In this document: one piece after another, positions 5,670-23,899 of the stretch
Layout of the letters: each line of letters begins with the position of its first letter
Numbering within the stretch: position 1 is the first letter of the stretch
Origin: an uncultured Pseudomonadota bacterium
GTDB lineage: Bacteria; BMS3Abin14
Direction of reading: 5' to 3'
Length of the DNA: 23,899 nt
Assembly (NCBI GenBank): GCA_964454175.1
Contig: CAYVSA010000003.1
Span: forward strand, 1 to 23,899
Program-made: the position numbers and the translations under genes
Notes under the pieces: generated by a model
Databases searched by the model: none
The model's input: the letters and a program-made list of their open reading frames with translations, nothing else
Told to the model about the DNA's origin: nothing

Positions 5670-5704
5670 CAAGTTTGCGAGGACTGTTCTCAGGGAGTTT
5701 AATT

Positions 5705-6130
5705 TTGGCCAAGAGGCATACATCAGGACAGAAGGGGTTTACGCTTATTGAACTACTGATGGTTATAGCTATCATGGGAATACTGGCGTCCTTTGCCATA
5801 CCGAGCTACATGGGCATGAAGGACAAGGCCACATGGGGAGTCACCAAGGCGAACCTGGATGTTATCAGGACGGCCCTGGCGAACTACGCGGCCAACTCGG
5901 CCGAGACCATGTATCCCCTTTCGGTGAGCAACTGGGCCAACCTTGTGGCCCTCCTGCCTGAGTCAAACCTGCCGCCTACCAGCGTCCAGGCAAAGGTGGC
6001 GGCGGGGACTTTCTCCTACGCCTCATCGGTGGGTGCGAATTTTACTGTAACGGTAACATCCACGAACAAATTCTTGGATGTTCTCACCGCAAAACCGTCA
6101 GGCATCTCTCCACAGGAGTATCCCCGTTAG
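5705..6130 (+). CDS. Type IV pilin, full-length paralog of the downstream PilA
   Basis: Class III signal QKG|FTLIELL with Glu5; aligns end to end with the 6391 pilin (about 64 of 131 identities by manual count). TTG 5705 is preferred over 5675 because GGGAG lies at 5693-5697. Confidence 0.88.
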   Translation: MAKRHTSGQKGFTLIELLMVIAIMGILASFAIPSYMGMKDKATWGVTKANLDVIRTALANYAANSAETMYPLSVSNWANLVALLPESNLPPTSVQAKVAAGTFSYASSVGANFTVTVTSTNKFLDVLTAKPSGISPQEYPR

Positions 6131-6320: not shown

Positions 6321-6336
6321 TGGCACAACGCTTGCT
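6321..6336 (+). promoter_or_regulatory. Sigma54 (-24/-12) promoter of pilA
   Basis: TGGCAC-AACGC-TTGCT matches the TGGCAC-N5-TTGCW consensus exactly, 54 nt before the pilA ATG. Confidence 0.9.
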
Positions 6337-6390: not shown

Positions 6391-6819
6391 ATGTTGATGA
6401 AGATGAGAGCAAGAAGAGGTGAAAAGGGTTTTACCCTTATCGAGCTGATGATCGTTGTGGCGATCATCGGAATCCTGGCAGCCATTGCCATTCCAAATTT
6501 CCTGAACCTCAAGGACAAGGCGATCTTCGGAACGGCCAAGGCCAACGTTGATGTACTGCGCTCGGCACTGGCAGCCTATGCAGCCGACGACTCGTCAAAC
6601 AGGTACCCGACAGCGACTGGTCGGACATTTAGTCAACTTAGCAACCTGGTTCCCAACGCCAATATGCCGTCAACCGCAGCTCTGGCAAAATTTGGTAGCT
6701 TTACCTACGACAGTGCTGCCGGCATGAGCTTCACCATCACGGTAACGGCGACGAACCGTGCCAGTGACCAGCTTGTTGGAACACCCTCGGGGATCACACC
6801 CAACGCGTATCCTCATTAA
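6391..6819 (+). CDS. pilA: Major type IVa pilin PilA
   Basis: EKG|FTLIELMIVVAIIGILAAIAIPNF canonical N-terminus; GGAGGT RBS at 6378-6383; own sigma54 promoter and terminator; 129-aa mature chain with no Cys. Confidence 0.93.
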   Translation: MLMKMRARRGEKGFTLIELMIVVAIIGILAAIAIPNFLNLKDKAIFGTAKANVDVLRSALAAYAADDSSNRYPTATGRTFSQLSNLVPNANMPSTAALAKFGSFTYDSAAGMSFTITVTATNRASDQLVGTPSGITPNAYPH

Positions 6820-8736: not shown

Positions 8737-9659
8737 CGATGAAACACTCGGAAAATCTGACCGATCCTGTGTTCTATAGCAGCGAAAAATGCTCTGGGTT
8801 CTATTGTGAACCGGCGTGCCCTGAAAAGTGTTTTCATAAAAGTTCTGTCGATGAATCCTCTATCTCTCCCGAAGTAGTCCCTGAAGACAGCATCCACAGT
8901 AGGACCTCTGTGGCGGCGTACCTGCCCGGAACCGGTGAGAGAACGCGGGTGTACCCTGAATCCGGAAAGAAAACTGTCTGTCCTTCTGTAATTAGCTCCT
9001 TTGCGGATCATTCTGTAGAACATATCGTAGTCCATGGAGTACCGGCACTCCCGGAGCCCCCCGATCTTCCTGAAAAGATCAGACTTCCAGAATGCGGCTG
9101 GCTGGTTGAAAATGATGTTGACTTCGTAGAGGAAATCCCTGATATCGAAATCCACGGTATAGACCCTCTTTGTCACGCTGTCTCTGGCGTCGATCTCCAC
9201 CATATTGCCGTAGTAGATATCTGTGTCCGGATTTTTGGCAAGGAAGCTGCCGACCTTCATGAGTGATCCCGGGAGCAGTACATCATCGGAATTGATCCAG
9301 GTCATGTATCCTCCCGAAGCGAGTTCGACGCCTCTGTTAATGGCGTCCCACTGGCCACGGTCGCTGCCGCTTTCCCAATGTTTGAGAAGAGGTTCGTATC
9401 GTCTGATTATGTCAACAGTTCCGTCTGTGGAGCCCCCGTCCACCACGATGTGTTCCAGGTTGGGGTAGCCCTGGTTGTGGATCGACAGGATGGTCCGCTC
9501 CATGAAGGGCGCCTGATTGAGAGATGGCGTAATAATTGAGATTATCGGCAAAGAGGGGTCTGCCGCCGGTCTTGTCCCGGATTGAAGTACTGGACTTTCG
9601 AGAAAAGCCCTTAGTTCTTCAGTTATTATGCGGCTGGTATTGGAGATTCCCATCGACAT
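8733..9659 (-). CDS. Glycosyltransferase family 2
   Basis: ISIITPSLNQ, VVDGGSTDGT, DAINRG, WINSDD, QPAAFW and MDYD motifs; its stop codon overlaps the convergent gene's stop at CTAG 8733-8736. Confidence 0.9.
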   Translation of the reverse strand: MSMGISNTSRIITEELRAFLESPVLQSGTRPAADPSLPIISIITPSLNQAPFMERTILSIHNQGYPNLEHIVVDGGSTDGTVDIIRRYEPLLKHWESGSDRGQWDAINRGVELASGGYMTWINSDDVLLPGSLMKVGSFLAKNPDTDIYYGNMVEIDARDSVTKRVYTVDFDIRDFLYEVNIIFNQPAAFWKSDLFRKIGGLRECRYSMDYDMFYRMIRKGANYRRTDSFLSGFRVHPRSLTGSGQVRRHRGPTVDAVFRDYFGRDRGFIDRTFMKTLFRARRFTIEPRAFFAAIEHRIGQIFRVFHR

Positions 9660-9730
9660 TCCGTCAGTCCCGGCAGATTAACCATAACTGGGAGAATTGG
9701 TACTTGAATAAATGCACCCACCGGTTATAG

Positions 9731-9751
9731 TATGAAAAAAATTCATAGCAC
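9731..9751. promoter_or_regulatory. Dyad TATGAA-N5-TTCATA in the divergent GT2/wecA intergenic region
   Basis: TATGAA-AAAAA-TTCATAGCAC; a near-identical copy lies at 19401-19422. Confidence 0.55.
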
Positions 9752-9790
9752 AATTAAGTTTTTGTACCTCATGCCTGATAAAAGGTTCCA

Positions 9791-9940
9791 TATGTGGAGT
9801 ATATGGAGTTGGATTTCAAGTTTCAAGGTTGGGTTTAGAACATTAGAGCATTAGAAATTAAGTTGAATTGCATTTACCAATTACTAATCACCAATTACCA
9901 ATCACTCGTCACGTTGGACATTGGACGTTGGGCGTTGGGC
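9791..9940. repeat. Cluster of short tandem 7-9-nt repeats
   Basis: TATRTGGAG x2 (9791-9808), TTTCAAG x2 (9814-9827), TTAGARMW x3 (9835-9858), TYACYAA x4 (9874-9901), RCRTTGG x4 (9911-9938). Confidence 0.8.
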
Positions 9941-9984
9941 GCAGACCGGACTTCGGTCTTGTGCCGGGGAGAGGAGGGCAAGAC

Positions 9985-10986
9985 TTGAACCCGATTATTT
10001 ACGCTGCGAGTTTTGCCGTTTCTCTGGGTATTTCTCTTGCCCTGACGCCGTGGATCTCCGCGACGGCGACGCGCATAGGTCTCGTGGATATGCCCGACGG
10101 CCAACTGAAAAAGCACGTAGAGCCGGTGCCTTATCTGGGAGGCCTGTCTGTCTTCGTAGGTTTCCTGGTGGGGTTGTCCGTATTTTTCCGGTTTGACAGG
10201 GAAGTACTTGCTGTCCTTCTTGGGGGGACTCTCATTCTTTTGTTGGGGCTCCTTGATGACATGGGTGATTTCCCAGCCAGGACCAAACTCCTGGGGCAGG
10301 CCCTTGCCGTCCTCATCGTAATGAGGGCGGGTGTAGGTATCAAGATCACTTTCCTGCCGGTATATATTGCTCTGCCGCTCTCCTTTTTTTGGCTGCTCGG
10401 TCTTACCAATGCTTTTAACCTCATCGATATCATGGATGGGCTTTCCGCAGGGGTGGCTGCTGTAGGGTGCATTTTCCTGTTTGTTCTCTCTATTTCTGCG
10501 GGGCAATCGGGCGTGGCCCTCATGGTTGCCTGTCTTGCAGGCTCTCTCCTGGGATTTTTACGCTTCAATTTCAAGCCGGCGAAAATCTACCTGGGAGATG
10601 CCGGCAGCCTCTTTATCGGCTTTATGCTGGGCGCCCTGAGCCTTATCGGGGTCTATGCAAGAAAAAACCCTGTGGCCCTTCTGGCGCCGCTCCTCATACT
10701 GGGTGTCCCTATTTTCGACACGCTGTTCGTTATCCTGATCCGCTACCGGAGAGGTGTACCGGTTATGTGGGGAAGCCCCGATCACGTTGCTCTAAGGCTT
10801 CGCAAGTGGAGGCTTTCTGTTTTTCAGACCGTTATCCTGAGTTATGCAGTATCGGCACTGCTTGGTTTTCTGGCGCTGGTGATGGTTTTCGGCAGTCAGA
10901 AAGCAGCCCTGATAGTAATCGCGTGTGTCAGCGCCGTCACGTTGGCGACGGCCTTGTGGCTTAAAAGGATAGATATGACGCTCTGA
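9985..10986 (+). CDS. Polyprenyl-phosphate N-acetylhexosamine-1-phosphate transferase (WecA/TagO/MraY family)
   Basis: PYLGG, GLLDD, NAFNLIDIMDGL, NFKPAKIYLGDAGS and PIFDT motifs. Start moved to TTG 9985 (GGAGG at 9973-9977); the ORF-track extension from 9868 translates the repeat tract. Confidence 0.88.
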   Translation: MNPIIYAASFAVSLGISLALTPWISATATRIGLVDMPDGQLKKHVEPVPYLGGLSVFVGFLVGLSVFFRFDREVLAVLLGGTLILLLGLLDDMGDFPARTKLLGQALAVLIVMRAGVGIKITFLPVYIALPLSFFWLLGLTNAFNLIDIMDGLSAGVAAVGCIFLFVLSISAGQSGVALMVACLAGSLLGFLRFNFKPAKIYLGDAGSLFIGFMLGALSLIGVYARKNPVALLAPLLILGVPIFDTLFVILIRYRRGVPVMWGSPDHVALRLRKWRLSVFQTVILSYAVSALLGFLALVMVFGSQKAALIVIACVSAVTLATALWLKRIDMTL

Positions 10987-11057
10987 CCATACCCCGGGCG
11001 AAGATCGAAGGGAAACAGAATGGATCGTGGTTTTGCCGGGAGGAGATAGAGGATCAG

Positions 11058-13058
11058 ATGAGTGACAGCCAAAACGGGGCAGCTATTAAGCCTTCAGAGG
11101 TTTCGAGGAATTATTACGGCTGGTTTGCCGTCGCCCTGGTAGCGGTCCTGCTTGTTGCCGCCTCCAGGGTCGTGTACCCGATAAGATACCTGATCTGGCA
11201 CATCTCAGCTATTGCATGGTGGCTCGTTCTGTTGCTTTGCGCTCTTGGGCAGGGGACGTTTCTGCTGCGCCTGATAGGTGGCGAGAGGATCGAGGGGGAC
11301 CATGGCAATGATCTTGCTATAGCCCTTGGCCTCGGGCTGGGGGCCCTGTCTCTGGAGGCATTTGGCCTGGCAGCAGTTGATCTAATGAACACCAGGGTTT
11401 TGACCCTTCTGGCCCTTTTGGTCCTCACTGTCTCGGGATTGGCCGCACGGCGGCCGGCAGTGATTCTTGTCAAGGGAGCCATCAGTGAATTCAGCAGAGA
11501 TTTCAGGGAGGCTGCGGTGCCGCTCTATATCATTGCCGCGTCATCGGTGATGGTCTTTCCCTTCGTCCTTTTGCCCCCACGTTCTTTTGATGCGCTCGTG
11601 TACCACCTGGAAGTTCCCATACGCTACCTTCAGGCAGGAGGTGTCGTACAGATCAGGGAAAACCTGTATTCCTTTGCCCCGCTGCTCACGGAGATGCTCT
11701 ATGGAATTGCTCTCGGGCTGGAAGGTGTGGACCTTGCGGGCCTTGTCTACTTTTCCTTCTTCCTCCTCGTTCTCGTAACCCTCTGGCGGGGAGGCCAGGC
11801 CCGATTCGGGAACGAAGGAGGGGCCTGGACGGCTGCCTTCGTTGCTCTGACCCCTGTTTTCCTGATGGAGGTCCCTCGTGCGGGCTCTGACTGGTCAATG
11901 GTGTTTTTTATCCTCACCTCCCTGTTTTTGCTTGCGGAAGGAAAACGCGACACCAGGCGTATGGTTCTTGCCGGTGTACTTGCAGGTATGGCTGCCGGGT
12001 GCCGTCACCAGGCACTGGGCTATGCCATAGCCATCCCTTTTGCAGTTGGAATTGCTGACGACCTCATTGAAAAAAGGGGTTTGCCTTTCAGGCCATGGGG
12101 TTTATTCCTCGCAGTTTCGATCCTGGTCGCATCGCCCTGGTATATAAAAAACCTTATCATGACCGGAGACCCCATTTATCCTCTTTTTAGTTCCATTGCG
12201 GGAAAAACCGACGTGGGGCACGGCTTCGTCTCCGGTCTTGTTGGCCCGCGCCCCATATCCCTTTTATGGGATTGGCTCTTTTTCCCTTTCAGGGCTGTTT
12301 TTGACATAACCCACTATAATATGAGCTCGACCCTTGGCGTAATACCCCTGGCTCTGCTCCCGCTGCTCCCGTCCCTGAGAAAGTCGGGTTTCGGCAGCAG
12401 ATTCCTGGGCCTCTGGATGGTGTTTTCCTTCGCAGCCTGGTATCTCACCTTCAGAAGTTTCCGGTATGTCTTTCCCGTGGTGGCGGTCTTATATCTCTGG
12501 TACGGAGCTGCCCTGAGTATCGCCCTCAGTGGCAGTAAAAAGTTGAAAAAGTGGCTGCTGTCGGCCGTGTGCATCGCGCTTCTGGCTAATGCAGGGATCT
12601 TCCTTGGGCTATCAGATTTTGTGGACAAAAGTGTTGGCCCGGCCCTGGGCACCAGATCGTCTGAAAATTACCTGATGGCCACCTATGAAGTTTATCCGGC
12701 GATAAGTTACCTCAACAACCTCGATCCCCCTCCAGGAAAGGTGTTGTTCCTCGGGGAGATGCGCGGGTTTTACGCTGAGTTTCCCAGGGAAATTTCATCA
12801 CACAACGTGACAAATCGCCTGATCGAGATGGCTCGCGAAGGATTGTCACCTGACCGGATCCGATCTTCACTCGCCTCAGCAGGATTTACTCACTTGCTTG
12901 CCAACCCGTCCGAGTGGGAGAGGATGATAAACGCAGGCGAGGCCAAGTGGAGGGTAAGCACAAAGACCAAGGTCAGGATCAGGGATTTTCTGAGCAATTA
13001 CACAAAACCTGTTTTCTCCGAAAAAGGTTTAACCGTCCTGGAGTTGACCGGTGGCTGA
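11058..13058 (+). CDS. Polytopic membrane protein, probable GT-C fold (ArnT/GT39-like) lipid-carrier-dependent glycosyltransferase
   Basis: Many TM segments; loop motif FDALVYHLEVP..Y, PWYIKN...TGDPIYP and FRYVFP; soluble C-terminal domain; lies within a glycosylation block. Confidence 0.6.
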   Translation: MSDSQNGAAIKPSEVSRNYYGWFAVALVAVLLVAASRVVYPIRYLIWHISAIAWWLVLLLCALGQGTFLLRLIGGERIEGDHGNDLAIALGLGLGALSLEAFGLAAVDLMNTRVLTLLALLVLTVSGLAARRPAVILVKGAISEFSRDFREAAVPLYIIAASSVMVFPFVLLPPRSFDALVYHLEVPIRYLQAGGVVQIRENLYSFAPLLTEMLYGIALGLEGVDLAGLVYFSFFLLVLVTLWRGGQARFGNEGGAWTAAFVALTPVFLMEVPRAGSDWSMVFFILTSLFLLAEGKRDTRRMVLAGVLAGMAAGCRHQALGYAIAIPFAVGIADDLIEKRGLPFRPWGLFLAVSILVASPWYIKNLIMTGDPIYPLFSSIAGKTDVGHGFVSGLVGPRPISLLWDWLFFPFRAVFDITHYNMSSTLGVIPLALLPLLPSLRKSGFGSRFLGLWMVFSFAAWYLTFRSFRYVFPVVAVLYLWYGAALSIALSGSKKLKKWLLSAVCIALLANAGIFLGLSDFVDKSVGPALGTRSSENYLMATYEVYPAISYLNNLDPPPGKVLFLGEMRGFYAEFPREISSHNVTNRLIEMAREGLSPDRIRSSLASAGFTHLLANPSEWERMINAGEAKWRVSTKTKVRIRDFLSNYTKPVFSEKGLTVLELTGG

Positions 13059-14349
13059 TAGTCCCGTTGTTATCATTGGTGGAGGCCTGGCAGGCCTGAC
13101 AACCCTGGCAAAAATCACTCAGGCTGGTCAGGAATGCGTTCTTCTGGAAGCAGAAAACAGGGTAGGCGGTTTGTGCAGGACCGAGAAGGCTGGCGGTTTT
13201 TCCTTCGATTACACGGGGCACCTGCTCCATCTTAAGGAGGGCCAGGTACGGGATTTTGTTATGGAGCTTGTGGGGGATACGCTGGTGAATCATGCCAGGA
13301 GAGCTTCAGTTTTCACTAATGGCAAATTTGTGCCGTACCCCATTCAGGCAAATTTCGGAGCGCTTGACAAGGATACTGCAGAAAAGTGCATTGACTCTTT
13401 CAGAGCCCTGCGAGTTGAAGGGTCGGCTTGTGGTCCTGATTTTATCTCCTGGTCGAGGTCGACGTTCGGGGAAGGGCTTTCGGACATTTTCATGTTGCCC
13501 TATAACCGCAAGCTCTTCGTTCATCCCCTGGAAGAACTGGAGCCATCCTGGACGTCATGGTCTGTGCCTCGCCCCAGCGCTGAGGATATGGAACGCGCGG
13601 CAAGGGGAGAGGACACGGGGTCTTTCGGCTATAACGTTAATTTTTTATATCCATCCGAAGGCGGGATCGAGATCCTCGCCCGACGTTTGGCCAAAATCTC
13701 AGGCGACGCTGTTCAGCTAAACAGTAAAGTGACCGGTGTGAACCTTGAAAAGAAGACCCTGACGACAAGCGACGGAGAAGTCATCTCCTACAGCAGACTG
13801 ATATCGACTATGCCCCTTCCCGGCCTCCTTGGCATCATTAAGGAAAAGTCAGGATATTTCGGTGGTGCGGCAGGCAGTCTCAGGTACAGCTCTGTGCTGT
13901 CCCTGTGCATCGGTCTTGACGGCCCGGTGTCAAGAGATGAGCACTGGATCTATTTCCCCGAGGAGCGGTTTCCTTTCTACCGGGTTGGATTCCCTTCAAA
14001 CTTCTCTGGCGGTGTCGCGCCGGAGGGATGCGCGTCCATGTACGTGGAGGTGGCCCACGAGCCGTGTTCAACCCCAGACGGAAAAAAACTCCTCGCCGTT
14101 ACCATGGAACACCTGCGGGGAACCGGTATCATTCGGGAAGGAGTCGGTGTCGCTAATGAACTGATACTTCCCATTCAGTGTGCATATGTTTTCTACGATC
14201 GTTTCAGACTTGAGAATCTGCCGGGTATCCTCGAAGAACTGAAGATCGCGGGAGTCCACTCTGTCGGGCGTTATGGCGCCTGGGAATATTCTTCCATGGA
14301 AGACGCAATTTCCTGGGGGATGAGAGCCGCGGCCGAGGCACTTTCCTGA
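13051..14349 (+). CDS. FAD-dependent oxidoreductase, UDP-galactopyranose mutase-like (often auto-annotated as protoporphyrinogen oxidase-like)
   Basis: GGGLAG Rossmann motif, E....VGGLCRT, GFSFDYTGH, PYPIQ, MLPYNRK, WIYFPEERFPFYR...SNFS and GRYGAWEY; GTG start overlaps the previous gene by 8 nt. Confidence 0.7.
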   Translation: MADSPVVIIGGGLAGLTTLAKITQAGQECVLLEAENRVGGLCRTEKAGGFSFDYTGHLLHLKEGQVRDFVMELVGDTLVNHARRASVFTNGKFVPYPIQANFGALDKDTAEKCIDSFRALRVEGSACGPDFISWSRSTFGEGLSDIFMLPYNRKLFVHPLEELEPSWTSWSVPRPSAEDMERAARGEDTGSFGYNVNFLYPSEGGIEILARRLAKISGDAVQLNSKVTGVNLEKKTLTTSDGEVISYSRLISTMPLPGLLGIIKEKSGYFGGAAGSLRYSSVLSLCIGLDGPVSRDEHWIYFPEERFPFYRVGFPSNFSGGVAPEGCASMYVEVAHEPCSTPDGKKLLAVTMEHLRGTGIIREGVGVANELILPIQCAYVFYDRFRLENLPGILEELKIAGVHSVGRYGAWEYSSMEDAISWGMRAAAEALS

Positions 14350-15503
14350 TGCCGGTTCCTGTGGTTCACATCGTGACCAAGATGGAGCTGGGCGGGGCCC
14401 AGCAGGTGGCACTGGATATTCTATCAAACATGGACAACTCGCGGTTTGCTCCGATACTCGTGACTGGCCCGGAGGGGTATCTGCTGGAAGATGCGAGATC
14501 AAAAGGTTTTCCGGTGTACGTAGCAAGTCACATGGACAGGAGTATAAATCCGCTGAAGGATGCTGTGGCCGTGAGGGAGCTCAGGAGGATCATATCCGGA
14601 GTCGGGAATGCTGCTGTTGTACATACCCACAGCTCAAAGGCGGGTATCCTGGGAAGACTGGCCGCACACCGCGAAGGCATTCCAGTGGTAATGCACACAA
14701 TCCATGGTTTCGGAATTACGCCTGCGCAGAATCCGCTTGTGAGATCTGCACTCATCGCGGCCGAAAGGTATGCGTCAGGGATATCTACTCACCTTGTCGC
14801 TGTGTCAGACAGCAGCAGGATGGACGGTGTCCGCTGGGGTATTTTCGAACCGGAGAAGTGCTCGGTAATATACTGCGGTTTCGACCTGGATCCAATATAC
14901 GAAGCGGGTCCAATAAGGGATGACCTGGAGGCGGAAAACGGTATCCCCCGCGATGCGCCCCTGGTCCTGATGGTGGCATGCCTTAAACCTCAGAAAGCAC
15001 CGATGGATTTTGTGCGTATGGCTCAGTCGGTGAGGTCCCGCAGGGAGGATGTGCACTTCATGATCGCTGGGGACGGAGAACTCGGGGCCCAGATCAGGGA
15101 GGCCGCACAAAACGCCGGCCTGGGAGGGGTTTTACATCTGCTGGGGTGGAGAGATGATGTTTACAGCCTTATGAAGAGCTCAGATATTGTAGTCCTCACA
15201 TCAAGATGGGAGGGGCTCCCCCTGGTGATACCTCAGGCGCAGTCCGCTGAGCGGCCCGTAGTTGCAACAGCTGTCGACGGTTCAGTGGAGGCCATTGAAG
15301 ATGGGGTGAATGGAATTTTGTGCCCTCCCGGTGATATGGGAGCGATGGCCCGGAAGGTCCTTGATCTTCTCGGTGACCTGGAAAGTGCCCACCGTATGGG
15401 AATGGAGGGAAGAAGATCTGCGTCCCGGTTTGCCAGGGATCGCATGGTCAGGATGTACGAGGGTTTGTACGACCGTCTTCTCTCGGAAAGATATACACCC
15501 TGA
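14349..15503 (+). CDS. Glycosyltransferase family 4 (GT-B)
   Basis: GGAQ, HTHSSKAG, HTIHG, KPQKAP, LGWRDDV and SRWEGLP motifs; TGATG coupling to the upstream gene. Confidence 0.9.
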   Translation: MPVPVVHIVTKMELGGAQQVALDILSNMDNSRFAPILVTGPEGYLLEDARSKGFPVYVASHMDRSINPLKDAVAVRELRRIISGVGNAAVVHTHSSKAGILGRLAAHREGIPVVMHTIHGFGITPAQNPLVRSALIAAERYASGISTHLVAVSDSSRMDGVRWGIFEPEKCSVIYCGFDLDPIYEAGPIRDDLEAENGIPRDAPLVLMVACLKPQKAPMDFVRMAQSVRSRREDVHFMIAGDGELGAQIREAAQNAGLGGVLHLLGWRDDVYSLMKSSDIVVLTSRWEGLPLVIPQAQSAERPVVATAVDGSVEAIEDGVNGILCPPGDMGAMARKVLDLLGDLESAHRMGMEGRRSASRFARDRMVRMYEGLYDRLLSERYTP

Positions 15504-15591: not shown

Positions 15592-16362
15592 ATGTACTTT
15601 GCGGTTTTGATTTTAGTTTTTATTCTTGGGGCGGTGATCGGCAGCTTTGCCAACGTGGTCATCTATCGTCTGCCCGTGGGCGAGTCCATCGTTCGGCCCC
15701 GGTCCAGATGCCCTGGCTGTAAGACGACTATTGCCTGGTATGACAATATACCCGTATTGAGCTACCTGATCCTCCACGGACGCTGCAGGGCCTGCAGCCA
15801 CGACATCTCCTGGAGGTATCCCGCGGTAGAGACGGTAAACGGCCTGCTCTACCTCGGCCTGGTCATGAGGCTGGGTCTTCGGCCCTACACTGGCGTCCTC
15901 GCACTTTTCGGGACAGCCCTGTTGATCATTACCTTCATCGATCTGGATCACAGGATAATCCCGAACGTTATTAGCTTTCCCGGAATGGCTGCCGGTGTTG
16001 CTTTCAGTTTCATGCCCGGGTTTCCTGACCCTGCCGATTCCATCATAGGGCTGCTTGCTGGCGGAGGGTTTCTGTATGCAGTTGCTACAGGCTATTATCT
16101 CGTGACCAGGCGCGAGGGGATGGGGATGGGAGACGTAAAACTCCTGGGCATGATCGGTGCCTTTCTTGGCTGGCAGTCCCTTTTCGTAACGGTCATGTTT
16201 GCTGCCCTGACTGGCTCGGTCCTGGGACTTATAGCCATGAAGATAAATCGTGAGGACACAAAATACGCTGTACCCTTCGGGCCCTTTCTTTCTCTGGGCG
16301 CGATGGCCCACGTCTTTTTCGGAAGGGAGCTTATCCTGTGGTATCTGGGAAGGATGTTCTAG
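15592..16362 (+). CDS. pilD: Prepilin peptidase/N-methyltransferase PilD
   Basis: GSFANVVIYRLP, CPGC...CRAC Zn motif, IDLDH, GMGDVKL and PFGPFL. Confidence 0.96.
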   Translation: MYFAVLILVFILGAVIGSFANVVIYRLPVGESIVRPRSRCPGCKTTIAWYDNIPVLSYLILHGRCRACSHDISWRYPAVETVNGLLYLGLVMRLGLRPYTGVLALFGTALLIITFIDLDHRIIPNVISFPGMAAGVAFSFMPGFPDPADSIIGLLAGGGFLYAVATGYYLVTRREGMGMGDVKLLGMIGAFLGWQSLFVTVMFAALTGSVLGLIAMKINREDTKYAVPFGPFLSLGAMAHVFFGRELILWYLGRMF

Positions 16363-18005
16363 ACTCGATTTTCAGCAGGAAACAGCGGGGTCTCAGGTGG
16401 GAGATAATCGTGAGCCTCGGACTGCTGATGTTCGGAGGCATTGCTTTCATGGGTACCACCGCCCTGAAAGCTGCTGAAAGAGCCATTGTCATACAGAAAG
16501 TCGAGTCCCTCATCCGGGTGACGCGATCTGTTAAAGAGTCGATCACACTTGCCTGGGAAAAAGGCGATTCCGATCCCGGCTATCTCAATGCCATGGTTAA
16601 CCGCATGGTGGAGGGAATGGGCCTTTCCGACTTCGTCATTGCGGATATTGACGGGAAGATAGTCGCTCATCTGCGCCCGGAAAGTGTCGGCTCAGTGACT
16701 TCGGATCCGGGACTGCAGCGGGCATTGAAACAGCGGCGGATGGTTTCAACGGAAGAGTTTTCCGGGAAAAAACCCTTCATTCCCACTGGATCGTGGTCCT
16801 TTTCCTCGCCCCTTTACCGCGGTGAAGAAATTATTGGAGCATTTACGATCAGCTTTCCCATGGAGGATATCGGGGTGACCTTCAGGGTCCACAGAAAGAT
16901 CATACTGTCCTTTGCCCTGGCAGATGCCTTTGTAATAATTATTTTTGGCAGCTGGTTGATCGGCCGGGTGGCCATCAGGCCCCTGGTGCTCATTTCAGAA
17001 GGGGCCGCAGCTCTTGCGGCTGGGAATTACAGTTCACGTGTGAATGTGAGCGGCCCAAGGGAGATAGCTGCGCTTTCTGAAGTATTCAACTCCATGGCGG
17101 GGGAGATCGAGTCGGCTGTCCGCAAACAGGGTGAGCACCTTGCCGCACTTGAGAAGGCAAATCTGGATCTCATGGCTGCCCAGCTGGAGGTCATGCGGAA
17201 TGAAAAGCTTGCATCGGTTGGACGCCTTTCTGCGGGCATAGCGCACGAGATCGGCAATCCTCTCAGCGCTATCCTGGGCTATGCTTCCATTCTCCTCAAG
17301 GAGGAGCAGAGTGCCGAGGCAAGGGAATATCTACAGTACATCGAAAACGAAACTGAAAGGATCCAGCGGATAATTCGGGGGCTCCTCGATTTTTCGAGGC
17401 CCAGTGAGGCTACAATTGAGGCCCTGGAGGTGAACTCCCTCATAAAGTCAACCATGGACCTCGTGATCCCGCAGAATATTTTCAGCGGAGTCAGGATCGA
17501 TCTGGACATCTCCGATGACCTCCCTCCGATAAAAGGCGACCGCAGCCTCCTTTGCCAGGCACTGGTTAACGTTTTCGTAAACGGAGCTCAGGCGATGGAC
17601 GGTTCAGGTGTGCTGATCGTATCATCCTTTCTCAGGAAGCTGGATCAGGGGGAGGGCGTTGCTCCGAGGCGTCGTGCAGCAGACAGGGTGGACACCGACT
17701 TTCTTGCCCTCAGGCAGGGCATACCGGGCCTTGGTCCGCTGGGGGAGGGAGATGACGTGGTCAGTATCAGCGTGAAGGATTCGGGACCGGGGATACCGCC
17801 AGACCAGTTGAACCGTATTTTTGATCCGTTCTTTACCACCAAGGAGCCGGGGGAGGGGACGGGCCTGGGCCTGTCAATTACCTTCGGGATAATCCAGGCT
17901 CACCACGGCAGGATCTGGGCAAAGAGTGAAGCGGGAAGCGGGTCAGAGTTCATTATCGATCTGCCGGTCGAAGATATTTCAGGGAGGAAGAATGATGGAG
18001 TTTAA
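16338..18005 (+). CDS. HAMP-domain sensor histidine kinase (second pilus-locus two-component system, PilS2-like)
   Basis: Two TMs flanking a periplasmic domain, HAMP ([12 protein letters not shown]), [27 protein letters not shown] and GTGLGL; GTG start with GGGAG at 16325-16329, overlapping pilD. Confidence 0.88.
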
Positions 18006-19368
18006 GAAGATCCTGGTGGTCGATGACGAGGACAGCGTCAGGAATATGATCTCCGTCCTGCTGCAGAAAGAGGAGTTCGATGCCAGCGGGGCAAGGAGCG
18101 GTGAGGAAGCTCTTCAGTTTTTGAGTGAGCGGACCTTTGACGCGGTCCTGTGTGATGTCCGTATGCCGGGGATGGATGGACTTGAGGTGCTCTCAACCAT
18201 AAGGTCCCTTTACCCGGAAACGACCGTAATAATGATGTCGGCTTTCGGAACCGTGGACCTCGCTGTAGAAGCCATGAAGCAGGGCGCCTACGATTACATA
18301 AGCAAGCCGTTCAAAACGGACGAGATCCTGATCACCCTGCGCAAGGCCCGGGAACGGGAGAGCCTGCGCAGGGAAAATGTCCAGTTGAGGGAGCAGATAG
18401 AAGAGAAATTTTCTCTGGAAAACGTCATCGCCAAGAGCCCGTCGATGGTCAAAATAATCGATACTGCCCGGAAAGTGGCAGGCTACAGGAGCCACGTCCT
18501 GATAACGGGAGAGAGTGGGACGGGGAAAGAGGTCCTGGCCCGGGCGATCCACAATCTCAGCCCGTGGAAGGATGGACCTTTCGTGGGTGTTAACTGCGGA
18601 GCGGTACCATCATCCCTGTTGGAAAGTGAGTTTTTCGGTCATGTTAGAGGGGCTTTTACGGATGCTGTTGTGGATAAGACCGGCCTCTTTGAAGAGGCTG
18701 CAGAAGGTACGCTATTCCTCGACGAGATCGGAGAGATCCCCCTTGAGGTCCAGATAAAGTTCCTGAGGGCTATTCAGGAAGGGGAGATCCGCAGGGTTGG
18801 CGAGTCCAAAACAGTGAAGGTAAGCCCCAGGATCATTGCAGCGACAGCGGTGGACCTCGAAAAGGCAGTTAAAACCGGATCGTTCAGAGAGGATCTTTAC
18901 TACAGGCTCAGCGTTGTGCCCATCCACATCCCGCCTCTCAGGGAGAGAAGGGAAGACATCAAGCCTCTGGCCGAGCACCTGCTGAACCTGATCGCCTTCA
19001 GGGTCGGCGGTCACGATATGCACCTGACCCCGGGAGGGATGAAAGCCCTCCTGGGCTACCCGTGGCCGGGTAACGTCAGAGAGCTGGAAAATCTGCTTGA
19101 AAGAGCTGTCATCTTGTCGGGTTCAGCCGAACTCAGTGAGGACCAGATCACACCACTGCTGGCTGGCTTTGAAGAGGGCACAGGGACTGATGAGGTGTCA
19201 GATGAACTTTCCATCAAGAAGTCCGTTCGTGAACTGGAGCGAAGATTGATCGTCAGGGCCCTTCAGAAAACCATGTACAATAGAAGCAAGGCAGCCAGGC
19301 TCCTCGAGATCAGCCACAGGGCCCTGCTTTACAAGATAAAGGATTACGGGGTACAGGTCCCCCGTTAG
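17995..19368 (+). CDS. Sigma54-dependent response regulator (PilR2-like)
   Basis: Receiver domain, GESGTGKE, GAFTDA, FLDEI, WPGNVREL and HTH ALLYKIK. Start moved to ATG 17995 (GGGAGG at 17982-17987). Confidence 0.9.
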   Translation: MEFKKILVVDDEDSVRNMISVLLQKEEFDASGARSGEEALQFLSERTFDAVLCDVRMPGMDGLEVLSTIRSLYPETTVIMMSAFGTVDLAVEAMKQGAYDYISKPFKTDEILITLRKARERESLRRENVQLREQIEEKFSLENVIAKSPSMVKIIDTARKVAGYRSHVLITGESGTGKEVLARAIHNLSPWKDGPFVGVNCGAVPSSLLESEFFGHVRGAFTDAVVDKTGLFEEAAEGTLFLDEIGEIPLEVQIKFLRAIQEGEIRRVGESKTVKVSPRIIAATAVDLEKAVKTGSFREDLYYRLSVVPIHIPPLRERREDIKPLAEHLLNLIAFRVGGHDMHLTPGGMKALLGYPWPGNVRELENLLERAVILSGSAELSEDQITPLLAGFEEGTGTDEVSDELSIKKSVRELERRLIVRALQKTMYNRSKAARLLEISHRALLYKIKDYGVQVPR

Positions 19369-19422: not shown

Positions 19423-19470
19423 GCTGTTGACCTCATACCCTGAGAGATGCATAAAATGGGCATCTGTACA

Positions 19471-19486
19471 TGGAACGCCTTTTGCT
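19471..19486 (+). promoter_or_regulatory. Sigma54 (-24/-12) promoter of the fimT-pilV-pilW operon
   Basis: TGGAAC-GCCTT-TTGCT has correct GG-N10-GC spacing with one mismatch to consensus; it lies just downstream of a sigma54 activator gene. Confidence 0.78.
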
Positions 19487-19523
19487 AAATACAAAAGGAG
19501 ATAAATGCGAATTGGAGATTGCT

Positions 19524-20159
19524 ATGATTGGCAGGTTTAATGGAGAAAAGGGTGTAACACTCATAGAGTTGATGCTGGTGGTTGTCATAATCGGCATCAT
19601 TCTTTCGGTGGGTACCTATAATTTTCTCCAGGAGCTCCCCACCTATCGTCTGAGGGGGGCGGCAAACAAGATTGGGGCATCGGTGCAGTACATCAAGATG
19701 CGGGCGATAACCACCAACAGGAACGGCTGGTTCGTCGTTGATACGACAAATGACTTTTTCACGGGTTTTGTAGACGACGATGCGGATTCGGCGGTGGATG
19801 CTCCCGGCGAGTACACCATGTCCGGACTCGATGCTTCCGACACCGTGGCAGGGGTGCCGGGATTTCTCCTCCCGCAGGATGTTTCTTTCGGTATGCCCAC
19901 AACCTATGCCGGAAGCGGGCCCGACGGAGTGGCCCCGGGGGGTGACACAGACGGTGTTTTTGTGTCAGGAAAACCGGGCGAGAACGACGTCGGTTTCAGG
20001 CCAACGGGACTTCCTGTTGTGGACCTGTCGGCAATATCAAGTCCCACTGAGTCAGTAATAATATTTCTCAAGAACACCAGGGAACAGGGCTATGCAGTGT
20101 CAGTTGGAGTTACGGGCAGGGTAAAGATCTACCAATGGTCAGGGGGCAGCTGGCAATGA
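19524..20159 (+). CDS. Minor pilin, FimT/FimU (GspH) family
   Basis: EKG|VTLIELM signal; RLRGAA...RAI helix and F.PTG / V.VGVTGRV C-terminal pattern typical of the family. Start moved to ATG 19524 (GGAG at 19514-19517) because ATG 19470 overlaps the promoter. Confidence 0.85.
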   Translation: MIGRFNGEKGVTLIELMLVVVIIGIILSVGTYNFLQELPTYRLRGAANKIGASVQYIKMRAITTNRNGWFVVDTTNDFFTGFVDDDADSAVDAPGEYTMSGLDASDTVAGVPGFLLPQDVSFGMPTTYAGSGPDGVAPGGDTDGVFVSGKPGENDVGFRPTGLPVVDLSAISSPTESVIIFLKNTREQGYAVSVGVTGRVKIYQWSGGSWQ

Positions 20160-20671
20160 AAAGGATAACTTTAATGAAGAGTATCAGGCAACCATACAGG
20201 AGTTCAGGTTTTTCCCTTCTTGAGCTTCTAATAGCAATGGCCATATTTGCCATTGGGATCCTCGGGATAGTCAAGCTCCAGATGCAGAGCGGCTACGGCA
20301 ATACCTCGGCGCGGCACATGTCATCGGCTGTTAATCTTGCCAGGAACAAGGTCGAGGAACTGAAAAAGATCAGGGAGTACTACATCCCCACTACCGGTGG
20401 GACGGAGATAGTGGGCACCGACCTGGTGGATCCGGACAGCGGTAACGACCTTGCCAACTGGACTACCCCGGATCATTCAGACGGGGCTCTTCTCGCCGAG
20501 GACGGGTCCGCCGGCGGGATATATACCAGGGCGTGGAATGTAGTGGACGATATGCCCGACACCGATGTCAAAACAGTCAGGGTCAGGGTGAGTTGGCCTG
20601 AAGGTTCGGTGACGCGTTCTGTAGTTCTGGACACACAGATAGCTCGCAAGAACCTCGACTATTATCAGTAG
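20156..20671 (+). CDS. pilV: Minor pilin, PilV-like
   Basis: SSG|FSLLELLIAMAIFAIGILG, A.NLA.NK.EEL and YTRAWNV...KTVRVRVSW; ATGA overlap with the fimT stop. Confidence 0.82.
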   Translation: MKRITLMKSIRQPYRSSGFSLLELLIAMAIFAIGILGIVKLQMQSGYGNTSARHMSSAVNLARNKVEELKKIREYYIPTTGGTEIVGTDLVDPDSGNDLANWTTPDHSDGALLAEDGSAGGIYTRAWNVVDDMPDTDVKTVRVRVSWPEGSVTRSVVLDTQIARKNLDYYQ

Positions 20672-20735: not shown

Positions 20736-23700
20736 ATGATATCCAGGGCAGGCAGGTTTAAAATCAGCAGAATTGGCAGCAGGGCCGGCTTTACCTTTAT
20801 TGAGCTAATGATAGCTCTTCTGATAATGGGATTTCTCCTCACTGCTATCTACAGGGTTTTCACCTCCCAGGAAAGCATGTTCAGGGCCCAGGAACAGGCT
20901 GCCGAGATGCAGGAAAATATCAGAGCAACCACCGAGTTCCTCCACCAGGAGATGTCGTGGTTAGGGTACAGCGTCTCGGACCTGGCCGTAGTCTACGCTG
21001 GGGCCAGCCAGATAATCTACAAGTCGAATCTGCCCAACACGGGCAGTACCGTCAGCTTCATCCGATACACTTACGATGCCACCAACGAGAGCATCATGAG
21101 GGCTGTGGAAAGTACGCTGGTCGGCGCCCAGAACAACAACAATCTTAAGGTCCTCGCAAATGACGTTGACTCGCTGACGTTTTCATACTTCGACGGGTTT
21201 GGTACCGAGATAACTGCGATACCAGCGGTCAGCCCGACCAACGACAACGCCCTCGCAACAATACGACGGGTCCGTTCGGCAGTGGTGGTCAAATCAGCCA
21301 GGCCGGACTGGAATTACACCCATCCGACGGAAGGGGATAACTACAGGAGGCGGTCCTCCGTAGTCGATGTAAAGACCAGGAACGTCGAGGACGTGACTGT
21401 CGCCGGACTGGGTGTCGGGACAGGTACCTGCTCGTCATTTACCATGAACGTAACATACCCTGGTGTTGCCGGACGCTATTCAGCCTGTGATGACAAACAG
21501 GATGAGATAGCCACCAGTACGCAGGTCATTACTGATAATCCCTTGGTAACGGTTACTGTCGTCGATCCTGATGGTGCTCCGGACAACAACACGCCGGTAT
21601 CAATATCGGCAGACCACGGATATATCTTCAAGGACTCAGGCGGGACTGAAAGGAGCGTTATATCCGGCAGGTCCAACGGTATCGGGAACGTTTACCTGGG
21701 GGCTGGCATGACAGCCATTGCTACCGAGGGCACTGTGGTCACCGTCAGCACTTTTTTCACCCCCCCTGAGGCGGGGTGCCTCCAGCTTTCAAATACGGAG
21801 GTATTAACTATCACAAGCGGAAGCCCATCCAGGTTTGACACCACAGCACCGTACGGTACCAACAAGATGGACCTGAATTATATTGCCCTTGACAGCGGCA
21901 CCAACATCTCTCCAGCACCCTCCACAATGGCTATCTGCTCTTCTGCCAGCAACGTCGGTGCAAAGCTTGCCGTTCGTGTAGAGGACGACTGCGAAAACGG
22001 GATCGAGGGTGAAACGGTTGCCTATTCCATCAACCCGTCGGGCAAGGGAAGCTTCCAGGCGGGTACAAGTGACAATGGCGACGGCTCATATGACATTGTT
22101 TACGCCCCTCCGGACACCATTACTACGGGGGCCACCTCCGAGACCGTCACGATCAGCGCCCAGTGGGGTACGGCTACAGCGTCCAGCACCATTACCCTGG
22201 TACCGGGAGCGGCCTACGATATTGCCATTAACTCCATTGAAGGCCCCAAGGACGGGGGAGGCAGCTACCTATATCAGTTTACCAGCCCGACCAGCAACTC
22301 CTTTAACATTGAGCGGGTCAGCAACCAGCACGTGCAGATCAATTTCTCGGTGTTAGACGCCTGCGGCAACAGGGTCTTCGGCCGGGCACCGAACCTCACC
22401 GCGACCCCGAGCTACGGGAGCGTTACTACAATAACTGCTGAAGCTGACGGCACCTACACCCTTGACTGGTACTCTCCCTTCGGATGCGGCCCCGCTATCA
22501 GCAGCCAGACCATTATCATTAACGACTCTGGCATCTCCACTGCCCTTGCCAATGAGACCGTGGACTTTAACCTCCTGGCAAGCCTGGAGCCAAGGCTCAA
22601 CCTGAGTGTATCAAAGGGCGGCAGCCCGGTCGAGCTGTCGGCAGGATGCACAGCAGATGAGGTTGATATATCTGCCGTCCTCCAGGAATATGATCCTGTG
22701 GTGGACGAGTGCGTCAACATCGTCAGGCCGGAAGGCTCAGTAACGGATTACTATGGAGTGACATTTACTGTGACGGGTGCCGGCGCGGGCCTCGGCAACG
22801 GGTCTTTTTCACACTCAGACCTCACACAGGACACTGTCACCACCAATACCGACACCCTGGGTTATGCGTACGCGGTCCTCAACCCTGGTTCAGGGATGAA
22901 GGACCAGATCTTTACTGTCACTGCCAACGCTGATGTGGACGGGGAGATCTACCCGCAGACGGCTTCGGTCCAGGTGCCCCTGTCAGTGAGCACACCCAGC
23001 ACAGCGAGCGGGTTTTACGACAGCATCTACTCGGCCAAGAAGGGGGTCAACGAGTCCGTACGGCATTACGATCCGGGAGACACCATGTACTTCCAGGTAG
23101 GTGACTGCGACGAGAACGAGTACGTGTTCCAGGCAGATCCTCTGGGCGCTCCGGCAGTCTCTGTTGTCCTTGTCAGCGAACTCACAGGGGACAGCGAAAA
23201 GATATCTCTCACCGAGACCGGTGCCAACTCAGCCACCTTCAGGTTCCCCTCCGGTTTGGTAACCGAACTGAATACCGTTCCAAGTGCCAACGATTCCACG
23301 CTGCAGGTAGACTACGGCGACAAGGTGACAATGACGTACATAGACAACGACGATCCCTCACCCGCAACCAATTACACCTATGACGTCTTCATATCCGGCC
23401 CCAGGTGGTTGAATCTCTACAAAGATAACGGTGATGGTACCGAGAGCGTTATTATTTCAGGCGGAAGCCAGGTTCTCACCATGTACAACAACGACAAGCT
23501 CCGGCCAAAGGTATATATTCCAAGGCTGGAGGGAGACTCCTCCTTGAGCACGGATCTCGTTACGATCCTGGACAGCTCCGGCAGCGGGGGTGAATCTGAG
23601 ACTGTTACCCTCCGGGAGTCTGCCGATACCGGAATATTTGTTCCCGATAGTTCGACTTACGGTCAGGACTACATCCTGATGTCCACATCAGGGTCGGTGC

Positions 23701-23899
23701 CTCTGGCGCAGGAACTCTTTTTGCCTTACACACCCAAGACCATTACAGTACAGTATCCCGATACAGGCTCCATTAAGAGCGCGTCCTTTGTGATAGAGGA
23801 CGAGGACCTGCCAGAGGTCAGAGTCGATGCACCGACTGACGGTTCCACGGTGTCGGGCACTGTTACGGTGCAGGTTTACGCCGAAGACATCAACAACAC
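20736..23899 (+). CDS. Giant PilW-position minor pilin fused to tandem Ig-like domains (partial, at least 1054 aa, runs off window)
   Basis: Manual translation from ATG 20736 (GGGAGG at 20724-20729): MISRAGRFKISRIGSRAG|FTFIELMIALLIMG...EMQENIR...VLANDVDSLTFSYFD...IRRVR...VDVKTRN (aa 216), then no stop codon before the window end. The remainder is beta-rich, T/S/D/G/V-rich sequence with invasin/Big-type motifs. Confidence 0.88.
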   Translation, partial: MISRAGRFKISRIGSRAGFTFIELMIALLIMGFLLTAIYRVFTSQESMFRAQEQAAEMQENIRATTEFLHQEMSWLGYSVSDLAVVYAGASQIIYKSNLPNTGSTVSFIRYTYDATNESIMRAVESTLVGAQNNNNLKVLANDVDSLTFSYFDGFGTEITAIPAVSPTNDNALATIRRVRSAVVVKSARPDWNYTHPTEGDNYRRRSSVVDVKTRNVEDVTVAGLGVGTGTCSSFTMNVTYPGVAGRYSACDDKQDEIATSTQVITDNPLVTVTVVDPDGAPDNNTPVSISADHGYIFKDSGGTERSVISGRSNGIGNVYLGAGMTAIATEGTVVTVSTFFTPPEAGCLQLSNTEVLTITSGSPSRFDTTAPYGTNKMDLNYIALDSGTNISPAPSTMAICSSASNVGAKLAVRVEDDCENGIEGETVAYSINPSGKGSFQAGTSDNGDGSYDIVYAPPDTITTGATSETVTISAQWGTATASSTITLVPGAAYDIAINSIEGPKDGGGSYLYQFTSPTSNSFNIERVSNQHVQINFSVLDACGNRVFGRAPNLTATPSYGSVTTITAEADGTYTLDWYSPFGCGPAISSQTIIINDSGISTALANETVDFNLLASLEPRLNLSVSKGGSPVELSAGCTADEVDISAVLQEYDPVVDECVNIVRPEGSVTDYYGVTFTVTGAGAGLGNGSFSHSDLTQDTVTTNTDTLGYAYAVLNPGSGMKDQIFTVTANADVDGEIYPQTASVQVPLSVSTPSTASGFYDSIYSAKKGVNESVRHYDPGDTMYFQVGDCDENEYVFQADPLGAPAVSVVLVSELTGDSEKISLTETGANSATFRFPSGLVTELNTVPSANDSTLQVDYGDKVTMTYIDNDDPSPATNYTYDVFISGPRWLNLYKDNGDGTESVIISGGSQVLTMYNNDKLRPKVYIPRLEGDSSLSTDLVTILDSSGSGGESETVTLRESADTGIFVPDSSTYGQDYILMSTSGSVPLAQELFLPYTPKTITVQYPDTGSIKSASFVIEDEDLPEVRVDAPTDGSTVSGTVTVQVYAEDINN

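Follow-up and report, generated by a model that had tools for sequence, protein, structure and literature searches.

A giant PilW-type minor pilin gene with a long immunoglobulin-like extension in the type IVa pilus locus of an uncultured diderm bacterium

The subject of this study is a single gene at the 3' end of the stretch analysed here (hereafter the window), which comprises the first 23,899 bases of contig CAYVSA010000003.1 (C3 below) in assembly GCA_964454175.1 (2.17 Mb in 135 contigs, 98.5% complete) from an uncultured bacterium of the lineage BMS3Abin14. The gene, called the giant pilin gene below, lies in a minor-pilin operon of a type IVa pilus (T4aP) system and joins an N-terminal pilin module to a long chain of immunoglobulin (Ig)-like domains. 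Its frame is open from 20736 to 23897 on the + strand (1,054 codons, zero stops), as the preliminary description of this DNA had stated, and the window stops at 23899 because a scaffold gap of 100 N comes next. Beyond the gap the frame goes on to a stop at C3:25556 (1,606 codons in total, 34 of them X), and the sequence past the gap is collinear with the homologues. Alignment to gap-free homologues indicated that about 110 residues are absent from the assembly at the gap (C3:23900-23999), which puts the full protein at about 1,680 residues. Contigs built from public reads (one read set listed, share 0.09, and none of RNA) cover only 22464-22624 and 22951-23194, with the pilin-extension junction and the gap outside. 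From its sequence and its relatives, we regard the gene as real and conserved, and it is predicted to encode a PilW-type subunit of type IV pili (T4P) that carries an Ig-like string of about 1,450 residues.

The N-terminus of the giant pilin reads MISRAGRFKISRIGSRAG and then, after the predicted cleavage site, FTFIE, with Gly at -1, Phe at +1, Glu at +5 and a hydrophobic helix behind them; across the site, SRAG is followed by FTFIELMIALLIMGFLLTAIY, which is the class III type IV pilin signal noticed in the preliminary description. The leader peptide (residues 1-18, 20736..20789, + strand) ends at Gly18, and the predicted cut by the prepilin peptidase PilD lies before Phe19. The protein scored over the cut-offs of both Pfam N_methyl (PF07963; 26.1 bits, cut-off 21.2) and TIGR02532 (22.3 bits, cut-off 16.3), and residues G18, F19, T20 and E23 were invariant in all 10 aligned sequences.

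The pilin module itself (residues 19-216, 20790..21383, + strand) has a long alpha-1 helix and beta-sheets in the AlphaFold2 model, which was computed for residues 18-222 with a 9-sequence alignment (mean predicted local distance difference test score, pLDDT, 76.4). A Foldseek search of the PDB with this model gave 16 matches at E <= 1e-3 (best E 4e-05), and the 14 listed among them were XcpW alone (3nje), XcpV-XcpW, XcpVWX, EpsI-EpsJ, the Thermus pilin TTHA1219 (5g23) and, from a model of a pseudopilus filament (9a1f), a single chain. The next match was GspJ (3ci0_J, 1.8e-3), followed by an unrelated one at 3.8e-2. When a profile of the module was searched against 1.84 billion representative proteins, 5,692 were found at E <= 1e-3. 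After the giant homologues, the best relatives were mostly pilins of 190-300 residues that the profile covers over their whole length and that end where the fusion starts, that is, at the VKTRN motif (residue 216, base 21383) at which the pilin domain had been proposed to close; three of the eight short relatives scanned passed the Pfam PilW (PF16074) threshold. The giant gene also stands third in an H-I-J-K-type order of GspH-like, PilV/GspI-like, giant and PilX_N/GspK-like genes, which is the same in three other genera. On this basis (modelled fold, gene position and relatives, not curated family models) the module is classed as PilW/GspJ-type, in line with the earlier proposal.

A Gly-rich linker (residues 217-230, 21384..21425, + strand) follows the conserved RNVED motif; its consensus, RNVEDxTVxGGGVGTG, is conserved in the alignment, and its pLDDT is below 50 over residues 1-13 of the extension model. 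This model (residues 217-1054, 14-sequence alignment) had a mean pLDDT of 80.1 and is almost wholly beta-strand. Foldseek returned at least 500 matches to it at E <= 1e-3, the top ones being tandem Ig-like chains (Nup210, the S-layer protein SbsC, invasin, repeats of RTX adhesins, complement MG domains, titin, InvD and FdeC), and the Ig-like nature that had been ascribed to the extension was thus upheld. The first part, residues 231-615 (21426..22580, + strand), is predicted to form three Ig-like beta-sandwich domains of the invasin/FdeC/intimin kind. In the comparison with VIA-align, FdeC (4e9l) was best (Z 14.6, 286 aligned residues, root-mean-square deviation [rmsd] 6.3) and invasin (1cwv) second (Z 11.9, 282 aligned residues, rmsd 8.3), both over model residues 15-399, and intimin, InvD and InvE reached Z of about 10. 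Only one pair of modules was demonstrably homologous to each other (residues 363-492 versus 493-600; hhalign probability 95.9%), Pfam Invasin_D3 remained sub-threshold in the window protein (18.6 bits versus a cut-off of 33, residues 409-490) and the Pfam Big_1 threshold was not reached by the giant pilin. The preliminary description had counted about four invasin/Big_1-like modules after the pilin domain.

A fourth Ig-like domain (residues 618-752, 22587..22991, + strand) superposed with VIA-align on the Ig-like domains of beta-galactosidases of glycoside hydrolase family 2 (Z 10.0-10.6, rmsd 2.4-2.6, about 100 residues, model residues 402-536). The region behind it (residues 753-1022, 22992..23801, + strand) is predicted to form further beta-sandwich modules of no Pfam family: it is nearly all beta-strand, with pLDDT mostly 52-92 by block and a disordered stretch below 50 at model residues 768-783, and in the homologue P0003 the region had zero Pfam matches even at E <= 10. 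It contains acidic clusters (DCDENE at 790, DNDD at 870 and DNGDG at 897), and D790, D792, N794, D870 and D872 were invariant in the alignment. The claim that this region consists of two copies of one module (residues 753-886 and 887-1022) was not sustained, as hhalign gave 7.3% for the pair and a self-BLAST of the giant pilin found no internal repeats at E <= 5. At the window end, residues 1026-1054 (23811..23897, + strand) are the start of a Big_7 Ig domain cut by the gap; Big_7 is sub-threshold in the window itself (17.6 bits versus 24.1) and clear in the intact homologue P0003 (residues 1026-1107, E 1.5e-10), in agreement with the earlier identification. The 518 residues beyond the gap had no Pfam match and no PDB sequence match with phmmer. 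Every part of the extension that was modelled or scored is predicted to be Ig-like beta-sandwich. Seven of the ten Cys within residues 1-1054 are invariant, which fits an exported protein, and these Cys and the acidic clusters would suit an exported, possibly Ca2+-stabilised chain. With a pilin module, a short linker and domains not specific to T4P biology, the giant pilin has the make-up by which modular pilins are defined.

The matches at E <= 1e-3 among 7,999 candidates scored, drawn from ENA, NCBI, JGI and Logan assemblies, were nine homologues of 1,335-1,785 residues that cover 99-100% of the 1,054 residues of the window and are 42-85% identical. All nine are collinear across the junction at residue 216 and across the gap and have no stops. 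The junction lies within contiguous sequence of this assembly, and invariant residues flank it on either side (K213, R215, N216, E218 and D219, then G228, G230 and C232). Three genomes of other genera (G011, G007 and G003) have intact matches of 1,600-1,760 residues on contigs free of N, and the gene order there is the same. A search for homologues spanning the junction had been proposed as a check in the preliminary description; because nine such homologues, from independent assemblies, are collinear across it, the fusion is no artefact.

Conservation was surveyed in 16 genomes, which are those of this phylum in the searched collection (one family, nine genera, 10 of high quality). Searches detected the giant gene in 11 of the 16, in nine of the 10 high-quality genomes and in eight of the nine genera. 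In three of the five genomes without a match (G001, G002 and G010) a 100-N gap at or just upstream of pilX is followed by the unrelated genes ftsH, folP and corA; these assemblies break at pilX, so that a missing match there speaks neither for nor against the presence of the gene. Assembly breaks tend to fall at the giant gene, here with the 100-N gap and in these three at or beside pilX with unrelated genes joined on, and surveys based on metagenome-assembled genomes may therefore undercount giant pilins. Mean pairwise identity was 0.55-0.60 for the pilin module and dropped to 0.32-0.47 for the distal third. Between genera the giant gene is 33-67% identical and pilX 37-58%, compared with 79-82% for pilM and 59-60% for pilQ; the giant gene and pilX therefore evolve faster than pilM and pilQ, and, with the distal third the most variable part, we counted this for surface exposure.

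Past the giant gene follow, in order, a 575-residue pilX, a hairpin of 13 pairs, a small helix-turn-helix (HTH) open reading frame (ORF), pilMNOPQ, aroC and aroB. PilX (C3:25878-27605, equal to L001:6878-8605, just past the window) matched PilX_N with 47.3 bits and has no Glu at +5. The seven C-terminal residues, REWRRVY, do not vary among the six orthologues, whose overall identity is only 40-61%. A profile of PilX matched Thermus ComZ (6qvi_A) at E 1.6e-11; the single PilX sequence had no match in the PDB, so that ComZ was found by profile only. By this profile match we identify PilX as a ComZ homologue, that is, a predicted K-type cap pilin of the ComZ kind. The GspK-like pilin fold of ComZ is interrupted by a beta-solenoid between its penultimate and last strands (PMC6561018), and PilK homologues supply a strand in cis where PilY1 is lacking (PMC13533445). 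The hairpin (L001:8671-8700) is GC-rich, terminator-like and lies directly after pilX, where the operon ends; we counted this for the replacement of PilY1. The small ORF that precedes pilM encodes 77 residues (L001:9025-9258), was judged HTH-like by eye and has a promoter-like site at 8938-8966. The envelope is taken as diderm because PilQ carries AMIN domains. Together, the window and its continuation are predicted to encode a complete T4aP system.

Whether pilX and pilY1 follow the giant gene had been left for the extended contig to tell: pilX does, and pilY1 does not. The PilY1 domain PF05567 was found in none of the 16 genomes of the phylum by a search that scored another genome (G033) at 60.6 bits, over the cut-off, and it is absent from the giant pilin itself and from the homologue P0003. 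A tblastn search of this genome with the PilY1 proteins of G033 and G042 gave no match at E <= 0.1, and in the control the two PilY1 proteins matched each other at 2e-18. The canonical set of G033 consists of a 193-residue pilin, a 346-residue PilW-like pilin, a 177-residue PilX and a 1,414-residue PilY1.

The architecture occurs more than once: seven other long PilW-like pilins and a second phylum with its own version were found. Among the best 150 relatives of the pilin module, 16 have at least 600 residues; nine of these belong to the family of the giant pilin and seven to others, and six of the seven carry fn3, Big_7, Big_2 or cadherin-like domains (none was recognised in the seventh, P0154). 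In a genome of another phylum (G019), a sigma-54 activator is followed by a GspH-like gene, a pilin gene, a gene for a 1,040-residue pilin (N_methyl, SdrD_B and FG-GAP) and one for a 467-residue PilX_N protein, and no PilY1 was found in that genome. In G030, pilD, a GspH-like gene and a pilin gene precede a long frame cut by the contig end. Of 19 genomes in the phylum of G019, 12 have frames of 1,049-1,201 residues in the PilW position and seven have PilY1 matches (five over the cut-off). The long pilin, here of 1,049-1,104 residues, occurs without PilY1 in 11 genomes and PilY1 without the long pilin in six, a single genome combines the two, and the last could not be assigned. We take this near-complete exclusion of long PilW and PilY1 by each other in a second phylum to suggest that they are functional alternatives, and the pattern would need several switches within that phylum. 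One genome, G042, has both kinds of cassette: a canonical one with a 321-residue W protein, a 156-residue X-position protein without a Pfam match and PilY1, and a second one without PilY1, in which an SdrD_B-bearing W protein of 1,114 residues is followed by a 437-residue X-position protein, again without a Pfam match. The two cassettes lie about 3 kb apart (L034, G042:C7:4001-22000).

Upstream of the giant gene in the window are the other members of the minor-pilin operon. A fimU/GspH-like minor pilin in the H position (19470..20159, + strand) matched N_methyl at E 8.3e-06, and its best NCBIfam model was GspH, over the N-terminal part only and below the cut-off; its orthologues are 47-70% identical and keep the same position in three other genera, and its true start is probably the ATG at 19525, not 19470. 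The I position is taken by a pilV/GspI-like minor pilin (20135..20671, + strand; type_IV_pilV E 2.8e-10, below the cut-off, GspI, and N_methyl with 33.1 bits). Before these genes lie a sigma-54 response regulator (17926..19368, + strand; Sigma54_activat, Response_reg and HTH_8) and a partner kinase (16338-18005; HisKA, HATPase_c and HAMP), which keep their position in G011 and G003 and are likely the regulator pair of the minor-pilin operon. As listed, the two ORFs overlap by 80 bases, and the regulator probably starts at a later Met. A -24/-12-like site with one mismatch is present before fimU at 19471-19485 and can serve as a lead only; over the whole window there were 23 sigma-54-like sites versus 20.7 +/- 4.7 by chance, that is, no excess.

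Further upstream, pilD is at 15592-16362 (A24_N_bact and Peptidase_A24), and the window starts with a PilT/PilB-type ATPase gene (148-1341), pilC, pilS and pilR; the prepilin peptidase and the T4P assembly machinery are thus present in the same genome as the giant pilin. Two tandem pilin genes follow pilS-pilR (5675-6130, 151 residues, and 6391-6819, 142 residues). The second has a perfect sigma-54 site (TGGCAC-N5-TTGC, 0 mismatches, 6321-6335) about 55 bases before it and is for this reason probably the major pilin gene, driven by PilR and sigma-54. Between the pilin genes and pilD, an island of the glycosylation type (6889-15503) contains an O-antigen-ligase-like Wzy_C protein with tetratricopeptide repeats, a glycosyltransferase (GT) of family GT2 on the minus strand, a GT4, a 666-residue ORF (11058-13058) without a Pfam match, a flavin amine oxidase and a GT1, and may be a pilin glycosylation system. 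The other pilin-like genes of the genome belong to a type II secretion system (T2SS) on contig C6 and to an MSHA-like cluster on contig C14. The latter (L025:3393-13207), the third type IV filament cluster of the genome, encodes an MshE-like ATPase, a GspF-like platform protein, four pilin-like proteins, a 126-residue PilX_N protein, a 738-residue DUF7507 protein at the MshQ/PilY1 place and a protein with AAA_22 and PG_binding.

The product of the giant gene is, in our view, probably a modular core minor pilin of the T4aP that stands in for PilY1 as the tip adhesin. The preliminary description had held that an adhesin or spacer function was grafted onto the PilW subunit; the fusion architecture is supported by the present results, and tip display, adhesion and passage through PilQ are what we infer from it. 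In the mechanism that we propose from the established order of H-I-J-K assembly and the strand-addition model (PMC13533445), PilD would cleave the leader, and the pilin module would pair with PilV and enter the H-I-J-K priming complex beneath the ComZ-like PilX cap. PilX would close its own sheet in cis with the C-terminal strand (REWRRVY); since this licensing strand would be given in cis, PilY1 is proposed not to be needed. The complex would then prime the pilus and be pushed out through the PilQ secretin during growth, with the Ig chain hanging from the tip as a thin, flexible fibril. An Ig domain measures about 4 nm, which would give the fibril a length of tens of nm. The variable distal third of the fibril may touch a surface, a polymer or another cell, and the PilT-like ATPase (148-1341) could allow retraction to pull on such a contact. 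More tentatively, and somewhat less likely in our judgement to be right than wrong, diderm T4aP may have two interchangeable tip designs, one with small PilW and PilX and a PilY1 acting in trans and the other with a cis-closing ComZ-type PilX and an adhesin chain on PilW; these would replace each other within phyla, and the present phylum would have become fixed on the second.

Several results weigh against the proposal of a pilin-borne tip adhesin that replaces PilY1. The model of the pilin module is middling (pLDDT 76), with template modelling (TM) scores of 0.40-0.56 and rmsd of 7-8 A to the Foldseek matches; we take the modest TM scores to come partly from the long helix, which is presumably missing from the crystal constructs. 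Pfam PilW (PF16074) had no match to the module, either in the window protein or in P0003; with three of the eight scanned short relatives over its threshold, the link to the PilW family is therefore indirect. NCBIfam GspJ (TIGR01711) scored 15.4 bits versus a cut-off of 64.85, over the N-terminal helix only, and the curated GspJ and GspH models were both below their cut-offs and matched residues 16-78 only. Neither a lectin, a von Willebrand factor A (vWA) domain, a propeller nor any other recognisable binding head was found in the giant pilin, and the distal 518 residues had only weak language-model look-alikes (Big_7 and Big_13, score 0.91; recognition 1842, under the 2300 mark), which are a hint only. 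Of the 15 further genomes in the phylum, five showed no match to the giant gene. Finally, the exclusivity of long PilW and PilY1 is seen in kin genomes, whose count probably overstates their independence.

The strongest alternative, which we hold to be unlikely, is a structural or assembly role. The Ig chain would then act as an inert spacer, or it would plug the PilQ channel or open its gate, a role after assembly that is now ascribed to PilY1, and binding would be left to the ComZ-like PilX (for example, of DNA) or to the shaft. The headless extension is compatible with such a role, as are the function of ComZ as the DNA receptor of Thermus (PMC6561018) and the proposals that PilY1 assembles or gates beyond adhesion (PMC13533445; 10.64898/2026.09.18.752573). 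However, the ComZ-type sets of Thermus and cyanobacteria run on ordinary-sized pilins in the PilW position (PMC6561018, PMC13759059), which argues that the Ig chain is unnecessary for assembly; moreover, the distal third is the most variable, as expected of a contact surface and not of a conserved plug, and other lineages graft typical adhesin modules (SdrD_B, FG-GAP, fn3 and cadherin-like) at the same place. Filament systems of the type IV class that serve secretion include T2SS and type IVb pili (T4bP). It is accordingly conceivable, but in our view improbable, that the pilin module is an export or anchor device only and that the protein, though handled by PilD and the T4aP machinery, is not built into a pilus and is kept in the inner membrane or released as a surface or matrix protein after cleavage of the linker; the flexible Gly-rich linker and the use of such systems for secretion (PMC13533445) would suit this, whereas the module is a whole pilin of the J type that keeps Glu5 and is encoded at the conserved J position between pilV and pilX, the operon has no other PilW candidate, a priming set lacking the module would have no J subunit, and the other pilin-like genes of the genome belong to the T2SS and the MSHA-like cluster. 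The idea that assembly joined pilW chimerically to an unrelated adhesin gene, or that the gene is a decaying pseudogene, draws on the 100-N gap within the gene and on the breaks in three relatives' assemblies at the locus and can be dismissed, given the contiguous junction, its invariant flanking residues and the collinear, stop-free sequences of the nine independent homologues and the three N-free contigs; only the exact sequence of the gap stays outside that verdict.

If the modular minor pilin does stand in for PilY1, the finding bears on how diderm T4aP tips are understood. The current model places a non-pilin PilY1/PilC adhesin on a four-pilin tip complex, and according to a 2026 preprint, display on pilins belongs to monoderms and PilY1 to diderms (10.64898/2026.09.18.752573). 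The giant locus would contradict this dichotomy, in that an entire uncultured phylum of diderms would rely on the monoderm solution, at a far larger scale. It would also provide an annotation rule for metagenomic T4aP loci in which PilY1 seems to be missing; an adhesin joined covalently to the tip would not be lost under load, which bears on retraction mechanics; and the question would arise of how more than 10 Ig domains thread through the PilQ secretin. The general idea of the modular pilin is already in print: more than 1,200 modular pilins with 264 architectures have been catalogued from monoderms and diderms, with an extreme case of 860 residues (Raynaud et al. 2021, PMC8179133). An Ig fibril of about 1,450 residues would exceed this extreme and any other pilin-borne appendage found in our literature search. 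That search found no description of a PilW/J-type pilin with a long Ig chain, nor of exclusivity with PilY1, and Dataset S1 of PMC8179133 may list such proteins; the earlier remark that no equivalent had been characterised thus stands, with modular pilins of diderms catalogued in outline in that survey.

The closest characterised analogue of the giant pilin is PilC of Streptococcus sanguinis, which consists of a pilin module, an Ig-like domain and a lectin and is bound to the I-type pilin PilA; PilB of the same species joins a pilin module to a vWA domain (PMC9934059, PMC8179133). As in these modular pilins, an N-terminal pilin module and a short linker are followed by non-pilin modules, PilY1 is lacking and display is predicted at the tip only; as in PilC, the extension opens with an Ig-like domain, and PilC pairs with an I-type pilin, as is proposed for the giant pilin. 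PilB and PilC are proteins of about 50 kDa from a monoderm that have one or two modules and whose binding head is defined, whereas the giant pilin has about 1,680 residues, belongs to a diderm T4aP with PilQ and a full H-I-J-K set and has no recognisable head. The closest system as a whole is that of the pilA1-pilA2-pilA3-comZ set of Thermus and the cyanobacterial sets with a beta-solenoid PilX (PMC6561018, PMC13759059), which are likewise diderm T4aP tip sets without PilY1 and with a large K subunit of the ComZ type; the Thermus type IV-like pilin TTHA1219 (5g23) is, in addition, among the fold matches of the N-domain. In those sets the J pilin does not exceed the usual size, and it is ComZ or PilX to which the extra function (DNA binding or capping) is ascribed, whereas here the J pilin bears about 1,450 extra residues.

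Like PilY1/PilC of proteobacterial and Myxococcus T4aP, the giant pilin is large, fast-evolving, probably exposed at the tip and encoded in the minor-pilin operon, with adhesion presumed. PilY1 is a non-pilin with a C-terminal beta-propeller (PF05567/IPR008707) that docks by giving its last strand to PilX/PilK (PMC13533445); unlike it, the giant pilin has no propeller and would be anchored covalently through its own pilin module. The Ig array of residues 231-615 superposes on those of invasin, intimin, FdeC and InvD and has the weak Invasin_D3 signal, but, unlike these inverse autotransporters, the giant pilin has neither a beta-barrel translocator nor a C-type-lectin-like head, and its anchor is the pilin helix. 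CofB and TcpB of T4bP, CpaL/TadG of the tight adherence (Tad) system and MshQ of the MSHA system are also enlarged proteins of the tip, subunits or partners, that give the end of the filament its function (PMC8179133, PMC13533445). CofB and TcpB are homotrimers, CpaL is K-type, as is ComZ, and MshQ, which takes the PilY1 position, is not a pilin; a J-type subunit bearing a long Ig chain is not among them. Seen against these systems, the giant pilin is an extreme, uncharacterised variant of the modular-pilin idea and no new kind of machine, with a long-PilW design that recurs in other lineages, and it is set apart from the known modular pilins by its J-type carrier in a diderm H-I-J-K set, its size, its headlessness and its apparent exclusivity with PilY1.

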